A DNA stretch of 32,000 nt from Candidatus Baldrarchaeota archaeon (GCA_019056805.1 DXJG01000002.1:403103-435102); one strand, 5' to 3'; positions 23,165 to 32,000 are shown, counted from the first letter of the stretch. Translations and numbers: made by a program. The notes: generated by a model from the letters alone, not told the origin.

Positions 23165-24247
23165 TTAATGATCTGTTATTGAACTTCTAGAAAGTTCTGA
23201 TCTTACAAAATCCTCTCTAGTTTCATCACTATTCAAATTTAGCATAAATTTACGGACATTTAAAATGAAATCTACAATACTTTCAACATTTTGCCTATAC
23301 ACTACTGTCAAAGGTTCACCATTCGTATCCGCTTGTAAAACGGCACCAGAAGCAGCTATTCCAGTTTCAATAGCTAATCTGATTCCTTCCCCAGAAAAAG
23401 GATTACAAAATCCACCTGCATCCCCAACAAAAATAACATTATCTTTCCCTTCTACAATTGTACCCTGTGGTATAAAGCCGACTTCCTTCTTTATTAGTGA
23501 AATAGGTACAAAATTAAACTCGTCACTTAATACCTTCTTAAACCTTTCAAGATACTCTTGGAGCTTTCTTATTTTATCCCTTGGAACACCAATACCTATA
23601 ATGAAAAGATCGTTTTTTGGAATAACATAACCATAGATAGGTGTAATATCCTTACTAAGAAGAAACATGTAGAAATACTCACTAAAATCTCCTTTTGCTT
23701 CCCAATGCTCTTGCAAAATTCCCGCAATATCAAAATCAGAAAAAGAGAATATATGTCTTCTCACATTTGATAAAGCTCCATCAGCACCTATTAAGTAACG
23801 AGTTTTAAATTTTAGAATGTCATTACCAGCTTTAACTAAAACTTTGATATCTTTTTCTTCTTCCCTAAATTCGAGAAACGCCGTATTAAAAAGTATTGGA
23901 ATCTTTTTCTTTATGGCTACCGAACAAAGCCATGCATCAAACATTGATCTACTAATGTTTAAAAGTTTATAATTGCGTAAAACTCCACCGTTCTCCCTAC
24001 CACTTGGAGGAACATAAAATAATCCTAGGGATTGCGGGAAGCTTAACACATCTGAAGGTATTCTTAAACTAAATTCATAATCCAAGATGTCTTGACACAC
24101 TAATGGAAGGATACCACCACAAGGCTTCGATCTCCCATATTTTCCTCTTTCAATTACTAAAACGTTATAGCCTTGTTCAGCGCATTTTAATGCTGTAGAT
24201 AATCCTGAGGGTCCTGCACCGACTACTATAACGTCGAATGTTCGCAT
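23165..24247 (-). CDS. Geranylgeranyl reductase-family FAD oxidoreductase (LipT-like by context)
   Basis: VVGAGPSG, KPCGG, LIGADGALS.VR, YGYVIPK, VGDAGGFCNPFSGEGI. Confidence 0.85.
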   Translation of the reverse strand: MRTFDVIVVGAGPSGLSTALKCAEQGYNVLVIERGKYGRSKPCGGILPLVCQDILDYEFSLRIPSDVLSFPQSLGLFYVPPSGRENGGVLRNYKLLNISRSMFDAWLCSVAIKKKIPILFNTAFLEFREEEKDIKVLVKAGNDILKFKTRYLIGADGALSNVRRHIFSFSDFDIAGILQEHWEAKGDFSEYFYMFLLSKDITPIYGYVIPKNDLFIIGIGVPRDKIRKLQEYLERFKKVLSDEFNFVPISLIKKEVGFIPQGTIVEGKDNVIFVGDAGGFCNPFSGEGIRLAIETGIAASGAVLQADTNGEPLTVVYRQNVESIVDFILNVRKFMLNLNSDETREDFVRSELSRSSITDH

Positions 24248-25830
24248 CTATATGCCTCTTCCCTTTTTTTCTGAAGATAGGTAAGAAGTTTTGAGAGTAT
24301 ATTTATTTTGAGTCTTGTTTGCGTTTCAAAATCTCCTCTATAAGCTTCTTTTTGTTTACCAAGATCGTAACATGTTCGATCATCAATATCAATAATTAAT
24401 CCAGGCACCCCCATCTCTTCGAGCTCATCACGATGTTTTTGATAAAATGCTTCGCAACAGCATCCAATGAATCCTCCTGAACCATGTTCCTTCATCATTT
24501 TTAACGTGCTCATTAAATGTTCAAAATTCTGTATGGTTATTGGCTTCAATCCTGCTTTCTCAGCTAGTATGTAAGCTTCGCCAATGGAACACAAACCACA
24601 TTTCAAACATCCTTCCTTTTTCCTATATTCACATGTAACAAGCTTGGCACAATATGGAAGAAGGAGATATTCACATTTACCAAGCATAACCTCTTTTGCT
24701 CTTCTTGTAATAGGATATATGTGGTTTACCTCATCGCTCTTAAGACCAAATTGCTCATATGAAAGCTTGTCAACAGCTTCCAAAATGATCTCCACAAAAT
24801 CTTCCGGAGAAATACCTGGAACCTGAATATCATTCTCTCTAAAGAAATCATAAACAATTTTTTTAATCTCTTTTTCATCACACGGTGTAAATTTTAATCT
24901 TGCTTCAAGATCGTAAATAGCTCGTGGAGGGAAAACAAAAAAGTCACCTGTTATCAAAACACTCTTAATTAATCCTACTTCCCTATCCAAAGCGAGAGAA
25001 ACTCGAATAATTCCCCCCGGCTTCTTTGTTATAGCATGAACTAAAGCTGGTTCTCCTGGAACCCTTCTATCTAAGAAAATCCATTCATCCGACCTAAAAT
25101 ACTGCAATCTTTCACGTAAGAATTTTTCTTCATGAAACGTAAGGTTTCCATCTTCAAGCTCTATTTCAAATGCTTCTTCAAATCCAGCTTTTATTGCATT
25201 TTTAATCTCTTCATAAGTTACATCACGGTTTAATTCCCATTTAAGACACGTAACTCTTTCTTTTACAGAATTTAACTCTTTATCCTTGAGTTTCACGATT
25301 GGTATTCTTAGTGCTTTAATCATAGTTTCTACATCGAAGTCTACTAGTAGTGTACCTTGGAATAAAATGGCATTTTCACGTTCTGTTCCACCAGTACCTG
25401 ATATCTTTCTACCATTGACTTCTATGTCATTTTTTGGACGGAAAGAAGCATTAACACCAAGATTCCTAAGCGCCTTAACTACTCCTCGACACATTATCTC
25501 AAAAAGTTCTTCGATGGAATCGTATGGAGGAATGGAACTTTTTGAAGCTATTATTTCCCATCCAATAGACGTTTCATCAAAATATATAGCTCCTCCACCA
25601 GTAATTCTTCTGTTAACATCTATACCTTTTTCCTTTACATAATCCAATCTAATTTCATGTTCAACATTTTGATGATAACCTACCAGAACCGCGGGAGGCT
25701 TAAATCTAAGAAGACGTATCGTATCTGGAATCAAATTTCTTGCTTTACACTCCAGAATTACATCGTCTAGTGCCATGTTTTCTGCAGCGGTACGAGGACC
25801 TGTATCTAAAAACCTCCATTTAGACTTCAA
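24226..25830 (-). CDS. Lipoate:protein ligase (LplA catalytic + LplB accessory domain) fused to a DUF116-like Cys-rich domain
   Basis: NMALD, RRITGGGAIYFD, RPKNDIEVNGRKISG, FQGTLL; KKPGG..ITGDFF accessory domain; LLPYCAK..C...CLKCGLC..GCCCE tail; TTG start. Confidence 0.88.
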   Translation of the reverse strand: MKSKWRFLDTGPRTAAENMALDDVILECKARNLIPDTIRLLRFKPPAVLVGYHQNVEHEIRLDYVKEKGIDVNRRITGGGAIYFDETSIGWEIIASKSSIPPYDSIEELFEIMCRGVVKALRNLGVNASFRPKNDIEVNGRKISGTGGTERENAILFQGTLLVDFDVETMIKALRIPIVKLKDKELNSVKERVTCLKWELNRDVTYEEIKNAIKAGFEEAFEIELEDGNLTFHEEKFLRERLQYFRSDEWIFLDRRVPGEPALVHAITKKPGGIIRVSLALDREVGLIKSVLITGDFFVFPPRAIYDLEARLKFTPCDEKEIKKIVYDFFRENDIQVPGISPEDFVEIILEAVDKLSYEQFGLKSDEVNHIYPITRRAKEVMLGKCEYLLLPYCAKLVTCEYRKKEGCLKCGLCSIGEAYILAEKAGLKPITIQNFEHLMSTLKMMKEHGSGGFIGCCCEAFYQKHRDELEEMGVPGLIIDIDDRTCYDLGKQKEAYRGDFETQTRLKINILSKLLTYLQKKREEAYRCEHSTL

Positions 25831-25843
25831 GATATCCCCTCAC

Positions 25844-26863
25844 TTATTTTAAATTTGTAATTTCTTTCCACAGGAGTGAGCAACATTCATCATAAATTTT
25901 AACTTTTAAACCGAGTTTAGTGGCGAGATTATATGCTTCCTCGCTTGGATAAGCAATACCATTTACACCCGCTCTAATACTGAGTACATCTACACTAGCT
26001 TTATACGGGCCTCTTGGACACGCACAGCCAAGAAGCAATGGCGTATTAGGCATTAAAAATCTTGCGGCTAACATAACCTTTGAAACAACAATAGGTGAAG
26101 GAGGGTCTATGTTTTCCATCGGAGTACCTCTTAAGGGCATAAACACAACTATAACTAATGCCGCTATACGACGCCTCGCCACAATTTTTAATGCTTCTTT
26201 TTCTCCTTTCAACTTTCCAAAATGTAGTCCAACAACTATATGAGGAATAGTAGGTATTCCATTCTGCTCTAAAAGAATAAGAGAATATTCAAAATCTTCT
26301 ACACTGCGATCGAGATGATACACTTTCCTAATAGTTTCATTTGAACCAATAATATCAAGCATGACACCATCAACATCAACTGTCGCAAGAGCCTCTGCCA
26401 TTTTAGGGCTGATAAGACCTGTATGAATAACCACCCTCAAACCTAACTCTTCTTTCACACGTTTAATTGCGGGAATAAACTTCATTAAAGGTACACTTCC
26501 ATCTTTAATGCTTCCTCCACTAATAAGACAGCCTTTGCCCCCATGTTTCTTAATTTTAAGACATACTTTAAGCAAATCATCCGGATTCTTTATAGGAATC
26601 ATATTTTCCAAAAGTTTCCCTTTACAATGCTCACAATTAAGATGACACATTCTTCCAGTTATAGAAAGAGCCGGAAATCTAAACGGATTCACAGCCTTAT
26701 GAAAGTAAGTGTCAAAATGAACCATCCCAGGTGCATAAAAATAAATAATGTCCGGGAAATACTTTCTACGTAGATTATATGCCTCCTTAAATAGTAATCT
26801 CAACTCGAAAGACTCGCTTTGAAAACACCGTTCTATCACATCGTCATTACTGCTTCTAGACAC
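25844..26863 (-). CDS. Radical SAM protein, COG1856 / LipS2-like lipoyl synthase subunit
   Basis: FPALSITGRMCHLNCEHCKG (CxxxCxxC), GCLISGGS..DGSVP, IHTGL, DIIGS, PHIVVGLHFG, LGCACPRG; GTG start; adjacent to the lipoate ligase. Confidence 0.82.
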   Translation of the reverse strand: MSRSSNDDVIERCFQSESFELRLLFKEAYNLRRKYFPDIIYFYAPGMVHFDTYFHKAVNPFRFPALSITGRMCHLNCEHCKGKLLENMIPIKNPDDLLKVCLKIKKHGGKGCLISGGSIKDGSVPLMKFIPAIKRVKEELGLRVVIHTGLISPKMAEALATVDVDGVMLDIIGSNETIRKVYHLDRSVEDFEYSLILLEQNGIPTIPHIVVGLHFGKLKGEKEALKIVARRRIAALVIVVFMPLRGTPMENIDPPSPIVVSKVMLAARFLMPNTPLLLGCACPRGPYKASVDVLSIRAGVNGIAYPSEEAYNLATKLGLKVKIYDECCSLLWKEITNLK

Positions 26864-27204: not shown

Positions 27205-27271
27205 TAGTATTACTATTCGAAAAATTTTTATTACTGATTAGTATTACTTTTTTGCAAAAAAGTAATACTAA
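27205..27271 (+). promoter_or_regulatory. Promoter with operator array: three AGTAWTACT boxes, BRE-TATA and a 34-bp perfect palindrome
   Basis: TAGTATTACTA 27205-27215; CGAAAA..TTTTATTA 27218-27233; TTAGTATTACTTTTTTG|CAAAAAAGTAATACTAA 27238-27271 abutting SD GGAG at 27272. Confidence 0.75.
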
Positions 27272-27283
27272 GGAGAGGGTTAA

Positions 27284-28345
27284 ATGAGCAGTTTATCTGT
27301 AGATGAAATCCTAAAAAACGCAGTCAGGGATCCGATAACCCCTAATGAAGCAATTATTCTTCTCAAAAAGATAACAAGCTACGATAAAGCTTTAGAACTG
27401 TTTAAAGTTGCTACCAGTGTCAGAGGTGACGAAATAGACAACAAATTCAAGTTTGACGGATTCATAGGCACAATAACCCGATGCACAACAAATCCACCAT
27501 GTAGGTATTGTGGAAGATCCGCAAAGAATAGAAGTGATACCTTTACTGAACCATTGACTCTTGAAGAAATAGAGACAGGTGCTAAACTTATCGCAGAAAC
27601 TGGTGTCAAATGTGTTGAAATAGGGGGAGGCACAGTATGGGATGGTGCTGGAAATAAGGTTATAGAAGCTGTAAAGACCGTCAAATCTGTTGCTCCCGAG
27701 CTAAAAATATGGGTTAATGTTGGTCCAGCTCTTTCTAAAGACGATCTACTAAAGCTCAAAGAATTAGGAGTTATAGAGGTTTGTAGCTCATTAGAAACTT
27801 TTAATCCTAAAGTTTTCACTGAGACTAAACCTGGGGACAGCATGGAGGCGCGAAAGAAGCTTGCAAAAGAAATAGATGAAGTAGGCTTAGGACTTACAAG
27901 CGTAATGATGGTTGGCCTCGGCAGTAGCTATGAAGACTATGTTAACCACATTTTCTGGCTTAAAAAATTCAAAAATCTAAGCCACTTCCCAATAACTGGT
28001 TTTAGACCTATACCTGGCACGCCAATGGAAAACCATCCTATGGCATCACCTATTGAAGTTGCCAAAGTAGGTGCCGTAGCAAGACTTGTACTGAGAAAAG
28101 TGGATTTATCCTTTGGAGGCATGATGAATGATCCTAGACTCTTACCACTGTGGATCATGGCAGGAGCAAATAGAGCTATACATTTGGGACCTCATGTACA
28201 CAGACTTAGACAAGGAAGCTGGTTTGAAATCAGATATTCACAAGAGGTAGTTGTGAAAAATATAGGAAAACTACAATTTCAAAATATGCTCCCTCTTACG
28301 ACGAGGATAGTTAAAGACATGGGCATGGAGGTTGATGTAAGCTAG
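27284..28345 (+). CDS. Radical SAM enzyme, BioB-like clade, HcgA/HmdB-like with CX5CX2C motif
   Basis: CTTNPPCRYC; LTLEEI, WVNVG, CSSLETFN..VF...KPGDS.E.R, MVGLGSSYED..NH, GFRPIPGTPMENHP resemble HmdB/BioB BATS-region motifs. Confidence 0.8.
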   Translation: MSSLSVDEILKNAVRDPITPNEAIILLKKITSYDKALELFKVATSVRGDEIDNKFKFDGFIGTITRCTTNPPCRYCGRSAKNRSDTFTEPLTLEEIETGAKLIAETGVKCVEIGGGTVWDGAGNKVIEAVKTVKSVAPELKIWVNVGPALSKDDLLKLKELGVIEVCSSLETFNPKVFTETKPGDSMEARKKLAKEIDEVGLGLTSVMMVGLGSSYEDYVNHIFWLKKFKNLSHFPITGFRPIPGTPMENHPMASPIEVAKVGAVARLVLRKVDLSFGGMMNDPRLLPLWIMAGANRAIHLGPHVHRLRQGSWFEIRYSQEVVVKNIGKLQFQNMLPLTTRIVKDMGMEVDVS

Positions 28346-28384
28346 ATAATCATATGTATTTTAGTTTAAAAGGGGAGAAATGTG

Positions 28385-29449
28385 ATGGCTGCTAGAAAAG
28401 TTTGGATTATTGCAATCTTATCTATAATAATTGTTACCGTAGCAATTGGAGGGCTCTACTACTACAACATATTATTATCTCAATCAGGACAAGTTAAAAT
28501 AGTGGATCAAGCCGACAGAGAAGTATATGTTCCACGAAAAATAAGCAAGGTTGTTAGCCTCTGGCCAGAGGCTACCAGAATCATAATTGCCCTTGACGCT
28601 GGAGATATGCTAGTAGGTGTATGTAGTGCTGATAAAAGAGACCCCATAATGACTAGGATTTATCCACAACTACAAGAACTACCAGACTTAGGAGATATTC
28701 GAGCTGGAGTAAATACTGAAGAGTTGGTTTCATTAGAGCCAGATGTAATCTTTTCAGATGCTAGAAGTCCGGAAGCAGCAGATGACTTGCAAAAGACAAC
28801 AGACATACCCGTAGTATGTGTAAGAATTAGTCTTCCGCCCGATGGTCATTTCTCTTTTGAACCAATAACGCTAATTGGCAAAGTTCTGAATAAAGAGGAT
28901 AAAGCAGAGTATCTGCGAAACTTCTTGGAAAGCGAACTTTCTAAGGTAACTGATGTTACCTCTGATATACCAGAAGATGAAAGAAAAACCGGCTACATAG
29001 CGTTTGCCAGAGATCCTTTAATTACCCTAGGTCACGTTGATCCTTTGGAATCTGCAGGCGTCATTAATGTAGCTACAAAGGGATTCCAAACAGTTTGGTA
29101 TCCAGTGAACATAGAGCAATTAATCATGTGGAACCCGGACATCATCATAATTCATTGCCTTCACAAGATAATAGGCAATTATACCATAGAGGATATCTTA
29201 AATGACCCACAGTGGCAGAATTTAGATGCCGTAAAGGAAGGACGAGTATACAATGTAATTGTTGGCTATTATGGCTGGTATCCAGCAACTGCCATTATTA
29301 ATGTTATGCAAATCGCTAAAATCGCTTATCCAGAACTTTTCAGTGATCTTGATGTCGAGAAAGAAGGCAATGAAATATACAAGGTTATGTACGGCGTTGA
29401 CAACTTTTTCACAGACTTAGTTGATATCTACAACCTCTACGTACCCTAA
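28385..29449 (+). CDS. ABC transporter substrate-binding protein, Fe-siderophore/cobalamin (FecB/BtuF) class
   Basis: N-terminal TM anchor (VWIIAILSIIIVTVAIGGLYYY), no lipobox; VDQADREV.VP..ISKVVSL, NTEELVSLEPDVI, NIEQLIMWNPDIII, W.NLDAVKEGRVY; alternative GTG start at 28382. Confidence 0.9.
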   Translation: MAARKVWIIAILSIIIVTVAIGGLYYYNILLSQSGQVKIVDQADREVYVPRKISKVVSLWPEATRIIIALDAGDMLVGVCSADKRDPIMTRIYPQLQELPDLGDIRAGVNTEELVSLEPDVIFSDARSPEAADDLQKTTDIPVVCVRISLPPDGHFSFEPITLIGKVLNKEDKAEYLRNFLESELSKVTDVTSDIPEDERKTGYIAFARDPLITLGHVDPLESAGVINVATKGFQTVWYPVNIEQLIMWNPDIIIIHCLHKIIGNYTIEDILNDPQWQNLDAVKEGRVYNVIVGYYGWYPATAIINVMQIAKIAYPELFSDLDVEKEGNEIYKVMYGVDNFFTDLVDIYNLYVP

Positions 29450-29479
29450 TACAACCTAAAACCAAGGTAGTGATAACTA

Positions 29480-30451
29480 ATGTTATCAAAGAGAAATTAT
29501 TATCTCATACTTTTTTCTCCTATTCCAGTCATTCTTGTCTCACTAGGTGTTGGCAGATATCCTTTGCATCTTATGTTTAAGTCGTTCTCTCTTGGTGAAA
29601 CGGCATCATTCATTCTATTTAATATAAGATTGCCTCGAATTCTTCTGTGTGCGCTGGCTGGCGCTACCTTATCGGTGGCTGGTGCTTCTCTTCAATCCAC
29701 TTTACGTAATCCCTTAGTTTCACCATACATTTTAGGATTGTCACAAGGTGCAGCTTTCGGAGCTGCGCTTGCCATGCTTTTATTGCCTTATTCTTCGTAT
29801 ATGATTCCTATATTAGCTTTTATTTTCGGTTTTTCGGCAGTAATTCTCGCATGTTCACTTGCTCGAATACGTGGTGGATTTTCAACTGTGACCGTTATTT
29901 TAGCTGGTGTTATAGTTGCAGCTATATTTACTGCATTGCTTTCAATAGTAAAGTTTATTTCTGATCCTTATCGTCTTTCTGGAATAGTATTTTGGACCAT
30001 GGGAGGGTTTTATAAAGCTTCATGGGACTATTTGCTTTTAGCTGCTCCAGGATCGGTAACGGGTCTTACAATACTTTTCTTTCTCCGTTGGAGATTGAAT
30101 GTATTATCTATGGGCGACGAGGAAGCTAAACTGATGGGAGTTAATGTTTATCGTGAAAGATTGCTTGTATTAATTTCAGCCACACTCGCCTGTGCATCGG
30201 TTATCTCTGTTTCTGGTATAGTTGCATGGGTTGGTTTAATAGTTCCTCATATAGTGAGATCTCTAGTGGGTTCGGATAACAAATACTTAATACCAGCATC
30301 CGCGGCTTTTGGCGCAAGTATTCTCGTGCTTACTGATGATTTATGTAGATCGCTTTTCTCTTTTGAAATACCGATAAGTATCGTTACAACGTTAGTTGCA
30401 GCACCGTACTTCATATATTTGCTTAGAAAAGTAGGGGGTGAATGGCGCTGA
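29480..30451 (+). CDS. ABC transporter permease, FecCD/BtuC family
   Basis: IRLPRILL...GA.LSVAGASLQ...RNPLVSPYILG.SQGA, LNVLSMGDEEAK.MGV, VGLIVPHIVR. Confidence 0.93.
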   Translation: MLSKRNYYLILFSPIPVILVSLGVGRYPLHLMFKSFSLGETASFILFNIRLPRILLCALAGATLSVAGASLQSTLRNPLVSPYILGLSQGAAFGAALAMLLLPYSSYMIPILAFIFGFSAVILACSLARIRGGFSTVTVILAGVIVAAIFTALLSIVKFISDPYRLSGIVFWTMGGFYKASWDYLLLAAPGSVTGLTILFFLRWRLNVLSMGDEEAKLMGVNVYRERLLVLISATLACASVISVSGIVAWVGLIVPHIVRSLVGSDNKYLIPASAAFGASILVLTDDLCRSLFSFEIPISIVTTLVAAPYFIYLLRKVGGEWR

Positions 30452-31224
30452 TAGTTGTTAAAGATGTACATTTCGCCTATGATGATAGTAAATTTGTATT
30501 GCGAGGTGTGAATTTAGAGGTTAAGTTGGGAGAGGTAGTCACGCTGTTAGGTCCAAATGGCTCAGGTAAAACTACATTGCTTAGATGTATATATAAGGTG
30601 CTTAAACCTAGAATTGGCTGTATTTACATTGATGGAAAAAATATTCTTGATCTAACATCTCGCGAAATAGCTAAGGTTATAAGCGGAGTTCCTCAAGAAC
30701 ATGAGACTACATTTCCCTATAGGGTTATAGATGTTGTTGTTATGGGTAAAACGCCCTTTTTAGACTTGTTTTCAGCCCCCTCAATAAAGGATTATAAAGT
30801 TGCTAAGAACATACTTGAAAAACTTGGGAAGGCAGAGCTGGCTGAAAGGCCTTACACTCAAATAAGTGGTGGTGAAAGGCAACTAGTCCTTATAGCTCGT
30901 GCTCTCATGCAGAATCCAAGAGTAATGCTACTTGATGAACCAACTAAACATTTAGATATTGTAAATAAGATGAAAGTATTGAGTATTATAAAGAAACTTG
31001 CCGTTGAAAAAAGATTAGCTGTACTTATGACCCTTCACGACCCAAATGAGGCAATAATGTTCTCAGATAAAATAGTGTTAGTAAAAGAAGGAAAAGTAAT
31101 ATGTTCCATTTCTTCTGAAGAATTAACTGCGGAGAGTCTTGAAAAAGTATATGGTATGCCTTTTAGGCTCGTGAAAGATGGAAATGTCAAAACAATTCTA
31201 CCAGTATTGGAATACACGGTATAG
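30442..31224 (+). CDS. ABC transporter ATP-binding protein, FecE/BtuD family
   Basis: Walker A GPNGSGKT, signature ISGGERQ, Walker B LLDEPT, H-loop LHD. Confidence 0.93.
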   Translation: MALIVVKDVHFAYDDSKFVLRGVNLEVKLGEVVTLLGPNGSGKTTLLRCIYKVLKPRIGCIYIDGKNILDLTSREIAKVISGVPQEHETTFPYRVIDVVVMGKTPFLDLFSAPSIKDYKVAKNILEKLGKAELAERPYTQISGGERQLVLIARALMQNPRVMLLDEPTKHLDIVNKMKVLSIIKKLAVEKRLAVLMTLHDPNEAIMFSDKIVLVKEGKVICSISSEELTAESLEKVYGMPFRLVKDGNVKTILPVLEYTV

Positions 31225-31315
31225 AAACCGTTTTAACTCCCCTTTTACATGTTTATCTGTAAAATTTGTTAATATTGCAATTATTTTGTTAAAATTCTAG
31301 CTACTTGAAGCACAG

Positions 31316-32000
31316 CTATGTTATTGGTGTGAAATAAAGTGTCGGATGAGGCCCTGAAAAATCAATGTTGGCATTATAAATTACTGTCGGTGGAGAAACA
31401 CCATAGATGAATGCTCTTCCTTTTTTACTGAAAATTTTAAAAAAGTAGTCAGCTGTTTCTCTTAATTTAACGTTTATTTTTGTACTTGGAAAAGTCGCTC
31501 CAATACAAAGATCTTTTTCAAACTTTACTCTAGAAATAATTTTCATAGCTATTTTTTCAGCATTTTGATGGCCGAAATCTGATTCTATTTTATCAAAAGA
31601 TAAGAATAGCAAGATATTATCCTTTTTTTCTTTTTTAAATTCATTTATCACCTTATTTACGGTATCTACAAAGTGGTCTCCATGATAACTTGTATAAACA
31701 AGCCATGGAAACTGTTTTTCATCTTCTTTTTCCTCACTGGGGATAATGATTTTACAGTTTTTCTGAACTTTCTCCCTGCCTACCAAAGCAGCATAAAACT
31801 CGAAGAAATAGAGCGGGCTGAGACCCTTGCAAGGTACGACAACCACGCCTCTATCCTGCATCAAAAAGTTCTCTACGGGAACCCCAGCAACATTTTCAAC
31901 AATGAATTCGGGAGGAACTTCACCAGTAGCTTCAAGAAGAACAAAACTTCCTCTCTTGTACCCACCTACAATTTTATCTATTATTTTAGAACCCGTGCTA
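31316..32000 (-). CDS. 5'-truncated KaiC/RAD55/GvpD-like P-loop protein; C-terminal, probably inactive, RecA-fold domain
   Basis: Frame stays open from 31864 to the window edge: STGSKIIDKIVGGYKRGSFVLLEATGEVPPEF..., i.e. the STG..LD..LGG..GS..L pattern without Walker A GKT. Confidence 0.65.
   Translation of the reverse strand, partial: STGSKIIDKIVGGYKRGSFVLLEATGEVPPEFIVENVAGVPVENFLMQDRGVVVVPCKGLSPLYFFEFYAALVGREKVQKNCKIIIPSEEKEDEKQFPWLVYTSYHGDHFVDTVNKVINEFKKEKKDNILLFLSFDKIESDFGHQNAEKIAMKIISRVKFEKDLCIGATFPSTKINVKLRETADYFFKIFSKKGRAFIYGVSPPTVIYNANIDFSGPHPTLYFTPIT

Follow-up and report, generated by a model that had tools for sequence, protein, structure and literature searches.

The operon analyzed here lies in a 32,000-nucleotide (nt) stretch of the genome of a Candidatus Baldrarchaeota archaeon, an uncultured anaerobe (GCA_019056805.1, DXJG01000002.1:403103-435102; hereafter, the window). 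It is headed by a gene for a radical S-adenosylmethionine (SAM) enzyme resembling HcgA (also called HmdB), which is followed by genes for a substrate-binding protein (SBP), a permease, and an ATPase of an ATP-binding cassette (ABC) importer. NikR-type operators were found over its promoter, and the pairing of enzyme and importer was found to be conserved in other archaea and in bacteria. On balance, we favor the view that this is a nickel-starvation uptake operon in which the radical SAM enzyme acts on the organic ligand of an imported nickel complex, perhaps by synthesizing it; the direction of synthesis, taken by itself, is proposed more tentatively.

The operon and its NikR-type operators

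A preliminary description of this DNA had placed a co-oriented SBP, permease, and ATPase behind the radical SAM gene, and the open reading frames (ORFs) were found exactly there (Table 1). The gaps after the radical SAM and SBP genes were 36 and 30 nt, respectively, and the permease and ATPase genes overlapped by 10 nt. Each of the four genes had its own Shine-Dalgarno sequence, and T-rich sequence was present only 3' of the ATPase gene. Judged by this structure, the four genes appear to form one operon; a search for sequencing data on the locus yielded DNA metagenome contigs and no RNA run. The three transport proteins all scored above the Pfam cut-offs (Peripla_BP_2, 84.1 bits; FecCD, 292.3 bits; ATPase, 110.9 bits), and together they are predicted to constitute a type II ABC importer of the FecBCDE/BtuFCD class. 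The permease fell below the cut-off of every NCBIfam equivalog, the best match being BtuC (211 bits; cut-off, 461).

The promoter had also been described as operator-rich, and this was borne out by one perfect and one imperfect paired box. The perfect operator reads GTATTAC (27241-27247)-N14-GTAATAC (27262-27268) and is located between the TATA-like stretch and the Shine-Dalgarno sequence, over the expected transcription start. Its layout is the same as that of the predicted delta-proteobacterial NikR signal, GTGTTAC-[N13/14]-GTAACAC (PMC545781), with one transition per half-site. We assign the element at 27241-27268, whose two inverted half-sites stand roughly two helical turns apart, from its sequence as a NikR-type operator over the promoter, and NikR presumably binds the operators at 27206-27269.

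Table 1. Features of the operon and its surroundings (positions in the window)
Feature	Position	Strand	Basis or remark
Imperfect NikR-type operator, upstream, AGTATTACT-N12-TTTATTACT	27206-27235		Sequence; 2-mismatch paired box, C9:430308; overlaps A/T-rich TATA-like stretch
Perfect NikR-type operator, AGTATTACT-N12-AGTAATACT	27240-27269		Sequence; genome-wide box count
Shine-Dalgarno sequence of the radical SAM gene	27272-27279		Downstream of perfect operator
HcgA/HmdB-like radical SAM enzyme, 353 amino acids (aa)	27284-28345	+	ORF call; Radical_SAM and BATS (Pfam)
SBP, 355 aa, Peripla_BP_2 (FecB/TroA-like class)	28382-29449	+	Pfam; fold
FecCD/BtuC-family type II ABC importer permease	29480-30451	+	Pfam FecCD
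ABC ATPase (ABC_tran)	30442-31224	+	ORF call; Pfam
T-rich region between convergent genes, probable operon end	31225-31315		Inference from sequence

Across the genome, single AGTAWTACT boxes were not enriched (26 seen, 44 expected); only the paired, 21-bp-spaced form is informative. The 1.92 Mb contain just 3 perfect paired boxes, where about 0.001 would be expected; at 3 mismatches, paired boxes were near the shuffle level (25 seen, against 7-16) and were set aside as evidence. The perfect boxes were located at the window operon, at the genome's only other FecCD operon, and upstream of an unknown gene preceding a rubrerythrin-VIT1 gene. The second FecCD operon (C2:31015-36420; L031:1015-6420) encodes, in this order, a BtuF/IsdE-like SBP, a FecCD permease, an ATPase, a 245-aa radical SAM protein, and a gamma-glutamyltranspeptidase, and it holds an additional paired box with 1 mismatch between its SBP and permease genes. 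The VIT1-linked box (C3:13812-13841; L032:4812-4841) was found ~165 nt 5' of the unknown gene (174 aa), after which comes the rubrerythrin-VIT1 fusion. A palindromic box with 2 mismatches stands directly 5' of CbiM-PDGLE-CbiQ-CbiO, a CbiMNQO-type Ni/Co transporter. A single NikR is encoded (C2:27717-28115; RHH_1 and NikR_C), which passes NF002815 (89 bits; cut-off, 83) and whose gene is divergent from that of a P-type ATPase. Nickel enzymes encoded by the genome include CdhC and, at three loci, large subunits of [NiFe]-hydrogenase. A separate DtxR-FeoA regulator is located beside feoB, 10 kb away, without such boxes. These findings suggest that the operator defines a small nickel regulon in this genome.

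Two further observations concern the surroundings of these boxes. The 245-aa radical SAM protein of the second FecCD operon has a CX3CX2C motif and is MoaA/NrdG-activase-like, making another importer-radical SAM pairing in the same regulon. At ~7-10 kb past the window, C9:441837-445500 (L045) carries, behind a paired box with 3 mismatches, an FmdE-domain gene, and then the DtxR-FeoA fusion and feoB; the chromosome stretch around it is a metal-homeostasis neighborhood.

Conservation of the enzyme-importer cassette

Species-representative genomes were scanned with a close homolog set, which gave 25 loci, and neighboring genes were compared by tblastn and all-against-all ORF clustering of the loci. 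The order radical SAM-SBP-permease-ATPase was found in the closer subfamily wherever a locus offered sufficient sequence (L006-L018), the hosts being Archaeoglobi, Thermoprotei, Aerophobetes, Mnemosynella, Desulfobacula, a Deltaproteobacteria metagenome-assembled genome (MAG), Thermoplasmata, Methanothrix, Jordarchaeum, and Bathyarchaeia, and it is kept in an Omnitrophota locus (L025). In all, 15 loci, representing at least nine lineages of archaea and bacteria, keep this linkage, and transport genes were the sole broadly recurring neighbors of the radical SAM gene. The association of radical SAM and FecBCD genes first seen in the window is therefore one conserved across domains. SBP orthologs (39-63% identity) directly follow the enzyme in 13 loci. 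Comparison of the Omnitrophota locus with the window gave identities of 39% for the radical SAM enzyme, 69% for the permease, 58% for the ATPase, and 51% for the SBP, which suggests that radical SAM subclades may be interchangeable partners of one transporter type.

Other genes accompany the cassette in particular lineages. A TonB-dependent receptor is encoded immediately 5' of the radical SAM gene in Desulfobacula and Omnitrophota. Genes for O-methyltransferase, cupin, and PNPOx-fold proteins are inserted in the clusters of Archaeoglobi and Methanothrix, and such genes also occur in anaerobic methanotrophic archaea (ANME); PNPOx-fold genes were present in three loci, and methyltransferases accompany the enzyme in five separate lineages. 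Extra SBPs and a CobN-type chelatase were found in Methanothrix and Methanosarcinales clusters, and relatives of the enzyme also adjoin CobW and CobN. A Firmicute cluster (L035) contains two SBPs, a methyltransferase, CobW, and MoeA, and L038:2765-13053 carries five tandem CX5CX2C radical SAM paralogs (347-363 aa) flanked by Peripla_BP_2, a methyltransferase, and two FecCD genes with an ATPase, the same arrangement expanded to an extreme. The neighborhoods of P0144 and P0133 gave no useful context. In ANME-1 (L020), two tandem radical SAM genes are placed within a Nik/Opp-type operon, and in L019 and L040 the enzyme gene stands beside components of an energy-coupling factor (ECF) importer; both of these importer classes have known nickel members. 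The enzyme-importer pairing has thus passed from phylum to phylum and also from one importer class to another.

We further examined the regions upstream of the cassettes. Within 150 nt 5' of 15 cassette operon starts, 13 exact NikR half-sites were found, in 8 loci, where 0.24 were expected from the loci's own background or 0.70 from shuffles; in 2000 shuffles, a count of 13 was never attained. Full boxes (2 mismatches or fewer) were located 24-52 nt before the radical SAM start in Aerophobetes (L009), Mnemosynella (L010 and L012), and Bathyarchaeia (L018), and in L008 two GTGTTAC boxes stand at offsets -64 and -41, spaced by 23 bp. Over whole loci, full boxes were only ~2-fold above shuffles (15 against about 8.6); the weight rests on the position-restricted half-site test. 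Genes for NikR were also observed nearby. A complete Methanosarcinales genome (L019; enzyme 51% identical) has the order putative ECF S component-radical SAM-CbiQ-ATPase-NikR with boxes upstream; in L033, nikR is divergent from S component-radical SAM with two boxes in between; and in the Omnitrophota locus a NikR_C-like remnant is located at the contig end, 5' of the TonB receptor.

The radical SAM enzyme and the binding protein

The rare cluster motif CTTNPPCRYC (residues 67-76, nt 27482-27511), noted earlier in this gene, was confirmed. In an alignment of 26 homologs, C67, C73, and C76 were invariant; there were zero invariant cysteines beyond the motif, so that an auxiliary cluster is unlikely. 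Both Pfam matches, PF04055 (59.5 bits) and PF06968 (24.3 bits), exceeded their cut-offs. The AlphaFold model had a predicted local distance difference test score (pLDDT) of 93.9, and the solved folds nearest to it were biotin synthase (BioB), HydE, and PylB (TM-scores of 0.77-0.82). The enzyme is cytoplasmic and belongs to the BioB/HydE/PylB/HmdB branch of the radical SAM superfamily. Assignments as BioB (84 bits) and PylB (72 bits), both far under the NCBIfam cut-offs, and as LipS2 (34.7 bits against a cut-off of 270) were rejected.

Among full-length relatives with scores over ~80 bits, almost all carried the CX5CX2C motif, which is therefore a clade character rather than a chance occurrence. 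It marks a small superfamily, in a clade wider than HcgA: an exhaustive HMMER search of 1.8 billion representatives yielded just 44 clusters at E<=1e-30. This superfamily is probably Megacluster-4-10 of RadicalSAM.org, the CX5CX2C group (PMC9477430). The clade of the window enzyme is without a characterized member, and literature searches turned up no description of it.

The best NCBIfam match of the enzyme was HmdB (TIGR03957), and the two have CX5CX2C in common, so that its description as HcgA-like stood. These two points would also suit a genuine HcgA of the [Fe]-hydrogenase, or iron-guanylylpyridinol (FeGP), pathway whose partner genes were missed in an incomplete assembly. However, the score was 185.3 bits against a cut-off of 320.9, whereas the representative that is a true HmdB (P0149) reached 559.6 bits; the remaining representatives scanned gave 111-286 bits or no match at E<=1e-30. 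A maximum-likelihood tree set the HmdB clade (support 99/94) apart from a 51-row clade (100/98) containing the window enzyme, whose own subfamily had a support of 99/96, and the two clades were sister rather than nested. Among 52 family-conserved positions, 30 were shared with true HmdB and 22 differed. Searches for Hmd, HcgB, the HcgC-type family, and HcgG (PF03201, TIGR03958, PF10113, PF11576) gave no match in the 1.92-Mb assembly, which is 91% complete, while each of them found the control, Methanocaldococcus jannaschii. The absence of hmd and hcg genes first reported for the window thus extends to the whole assembly, in which the window gene is the only HmdB-like one. Carriers of the clade include bacteria and non-methanogens. 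The identification as a genuine HcgA is already contradicted and can hardly hold.

The SBP has an N-terminal transmembrane helix and is predicted to be membrane-anchored and extracellular; in Archaeoglobi orthologs, a Cys-containing lipobox-like N-terminus was recognized by eye in the alignment. Mean column identity among orthologs was 57%, with the invariant motifs SLWPEATR and PVVCVR and several invariant Trp, Arg, and Glu residues. The model of the SBP had a pLDDT of 89.9. By sequence and fold, the nearest solved proteins were TM0189, Eubacterium eligens 4HN9, MolA (HI1472), YiuA, and Helicobacter pylori CeuE with Ni-His, and binders of heme and siderophores ranked lower than those of metal ions or small complexes. 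BtuF had no entry among the 50 best SBP matches listed, and no BtuF-level NCBIfam match was obtained. These neighbors fit a small metal complex as the ligand, without identifying the metal.

Proposed function, alternatives, and related systems

In the explanation that we favor, NikR, which is encoded elsewhere in the genome, would bind the two tandem operators over the promoter and start when nickel is plentiful, and the operon would be off; when nickel is scarce, all four proteins would be made together. The extracellular SBP, the type II permease, and the ATPase would import a small organic nickel complex, nickel being the cargo to which the operator sequences point, and the cytoplasmic enzyme would act on the organic ligand of this complex. 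By analogy with HcgA, it would synthesize a small heteroaromatic chelator (a "nickelophore"). This would be released into sulfidic, nickel-poor surroundings, where it would bind Ni(II) before the SBP captured it again. Synthesis of the ligand by the enzyme, as opposed to its breakdown, is suggested by HcgA, its nearest characterized relative, which makes a pyridinol carboxylate: in an in vitro assay, the metal-binding 6-carboxymethyl-5-methyl-4-hydroxy-2-pyridinol was built from a small metabolite (PMC10100467). The methyltransferases found in five lineages parallel the succession of HcgA and HcgC and likewise favor synthesis. So do the neighboring O-methyltransferase, cupin, and PNPOx-type genes, which we take to encode tailoring-type enzymes.

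Several observations weigh against this explanation. Exact half-sites were lacking in the 150 nt upstream of 7 of the 15 cassette loci, and the NikR signal used for comparison is itself a computational prediction in bacteria. A perfect box precedes VIT1, an iron-type gene; the regulator may sense more than nickel, and this box might be a sign of activation or of a wider range of metals. The usual cargo of ECF importers is a vitamin, and in the Deltaproteobacteria MAG a riboswitch-headed neighbor operon is separated from the radical SAM-SBP pair by a 200-nt gap. The 22 positions differing from HmdB suggest that the product need not be a pyridinol. Enzymes that use an imported compound, such as ChuW and Fes, are typically encoded in this way as well, by a lone gene inside a transport operon, and no exporter recurs among about 30 loci, which weakens the step of a secreted chelator.

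The last two points lead to a possible, though doubtful, alternative, in which the same nickel-regulated importer is served by an enzyme that destroys or rearranges the ligand after import and so frees Ni(II), as an anaerobic counterpart of ChuW/HutW. Destruction of the ligand would be needed because reduction, which frees ferric iron, cannot free Ni(II) from a chelate. ChuW and HutW are radical SAM enzymes within heme operons of a TonB-dependent receptor, an SBP, and FecCD. Breakdown is also suggested by the lack of a recurring exporter; by the position of the radical SAM gene at the head of the transport operon and, in bacteria, between TonB receptor and SBP; and by the occurrence of one enzyme clade with three importer classes (FecCD, Nik/Opp, and ECF), as expected if it handles incoming cargo. 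In Methanothrix, a locus holds several SBPs, which suggests that foreign ligands are scavenged. However, HcgA, the closest characterized relative, builds rings, the methyltransferase and O-methyltransferase partners look biosynthetic, and we know of no degradation required by the known bacterial nickel complexes (Ni-His2, staphylopine).

Salvage or remodeling of an imported organic cofactor (corrinoid, pyridinol, or vitamin-like), with a cargo other than nickel and an operator belonging to another regulator, is improbable. A cobalamin riboswitch was absent from the window and from 8 of the 9 other loci scanned, three bacterial cassettes included. In the ninth, that of the Deltaproteobacteria MAG (L013:2558-7793), an adenosylcobalamin (AdoCbl) riboswitch, a TonB receptor, a xylose-isomerase-like TIM-barrel gene, cobU, cobS, and cobT precede the radical SAM-SBP pair. 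This locus argues for salvage, as do the CobN-type chelatase adjoining the cassette in Methanothrix and Methanosarcinales, the permease's best match to BtuC, and the ECF importers, which are typical of vitamins. Against it, the recurrent regulatory context consists of NikR boxes and nikR genes, and the adjacent lipoate operon described below is not conserved. A BtuFCD corrinoid importer was rejected as well: the BtuC score is far below its cut-off, the SBP is nearest to metal-complex binders and had no BtuF-level match, and the window has no riboswitch. A corrinoid-, biotin-, or lipoate-related salvage cargo had been proposed in the preliminary description; it is disfavored by the NikR-type operator with its nikR context, by the likeness of the SBP to metal-complex binders, and by a riboswitch near just 1 of 10 sources. 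From that interpretation, the HcgA-like enzyme, the lack of hmd and hcg genes, and the conserved importer linkage were retained, and the cargo and the lipoate link were given up.

We consider it more improbable still that the operon is an iron module, that is, one that takes up heme or an iron chelate, ferric or ferrous, under a general metal regulator, with the radical SAM enzyme as a new anaerobic enzyme of iron release or siderophore biosynthesis. Fec-type parts with TonB receptors are classic iron-uptake hardware, one perfect box is upstream of the rubrerythrin-VIT1 gene, the PNPOx fold found in three loci also includes heme proteins of the HutZ type, and YiuA with iron is among the structural neighbors of the SBP. 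However, the operator has the two-half-site N14 layout of NikR, a box precedes CbiMNQO, nikR genes flank relatives of the enzyme, and the separate DtxR-FeoA regulator beside feoB is free of such boxes.

The nickel-uptake explanation can be compared with known systems. HcgA shares with the window enzyme the BioB/HydE/PylB-like barrel, the BATS domain, the rare CX5CX2C motif, and the 30 conserved positions. Methanogens induce [Fe]-hydrogenase when nickel is limiting, and both enzymes are in this way tied to nickel scarcity. Unlike HcgA, the clade of the window enzyme scores below the HmdB cut-off, is without hmd or hcg partners, occurs in non-methanogens and bacteria, and is always tied to importers and NikR. 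In H. pylori, NikR controls TonB-dependent nickel uptake through the FecA3/FrpB4 receptors, CeuE (structures 4INP and 4LS3), and FecDE. This system has a Peripla_BP_2 protein of the same structural subgroup, a FecCD permease and ATPase, a TonB receptor as in the Gram-negative versions of the cassette, and NikR-type control; in contrast to the window operon with its radical SAM gene at the head, it is without a dedicated enzyme and its ligand is histidine, and the SBP is 22% identical to CeuE.

The ChuW/HutW operons resemble the window operon in having a radical SAM gene among genes for a TonB receptor, Peripla_BP_2, FecCD, and ATPase under a metal regulator. ChuW, however, carries CX3CX2C and is a HemN-like methyltransferase; it is under the control of Fur and iron, and its cargo is heme, whereas the window enzyme is BioB/HcgA-like and stands in a NikR context. 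In the opine metallophore systems (cntKLM-cntABCDF-cntE; staphylopine, pseudopaline), a chelator is made and retaken for Ni, Co, and Zn. The proposed logic of biosynthesis and importer in one metal-repressed operon is alike, but the Cnt enzymes are nicotianamine-synthase-like proteins and opine dehydrogenases, the SBP is of the NikA type, there is no radical SAM enzyme, and a dedicated exporter is present, whereas none was seen with the cassette. For archaea, the only nickel transporter families listed are Nik/CbiMNQO, NikABCDE, and NiCoT (PMC2667541). These are predicted members of NikR regulons, and the CbiMNQO system of this genome shares the operator; unlike them, the cassette combines a type II (FecCD) importer with its SBP and an enzyme, a combination not listed there. 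The parts are of known kinds (type II ABC importer, NikR control, BioB-like radical SAM enzyme), and their combination is new among the listed archaeal nickel systems.

Nickel is required by hydrogenases, carbon monoxide dehydrogenase/acetyl-CoA synthase (CODH/ACS), and methyl-coenzyme M reductase. To our knowledge, how anaerobes acquire it where sulfide locks it away is poorly known. A NikR-linked importer always paired with a radical SAM enzyme would imply an undescribed chemical step in nickel acquisition, the making or breaking of a ligand, and would assign to an entire orphan clade of radical SAM enzymes (Megacluster-4-10, CX5CX2C) a function that can be tested. The cassette may also help to identify the substrate of HcgA, and with Archaeoglobus neptunius as a cultivated carrier the question is directly testable. 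Literature searches for a radical-SAM-made metallophore and for recent work on the HcgA substrate gave nothing usable. A broader and rather unlikely extension is that small nickel chelators, pyridinol-type or related heteroaromatics, are the products of the CX5CX2C enzymes linked to transporters, which would be the first such metallophore and the first archaeal nickelophore pathway, and that the FeGP pathway later recruited a synthase of this kind as HcgA together with its methyltransferase partner. In that case, the FeGP pathway, itself a response to nickel scarcity, would have evolved by recruiting a chelator synthase.

The window also contains genes on either side of the operon. A divergent lipoate operon of three genes (23165-26863, minus strand) had been described as placed back to back with the radical SAM operon; this arrangement recurs in 0 of the 25 related loci and is a local coincidence, and a functional link was rejected for lack of conservation. 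The radical SAM gene of the lipoate operon (25844-26863), earlier described as LipS2-like, passes instead the NCBIfam model of LipS1, with 244.7 bits where the cut-off is 230, and a paralog with 36% identity at 641-1570 of contig C1 may serve as the LipS2 partner. The next genes of the operon encode a 534-aa fusion of a lipoate-protein ligase with DUF116 and a flavoprotein of the geranylgeranyl-reductase family. On the other side, a gene resembling GvpD "basic region 2" (31316-31999, minus strand) is truncated by the window end; it has paralogs with 49-53% identity on contig C11 and weaker ones in other places.

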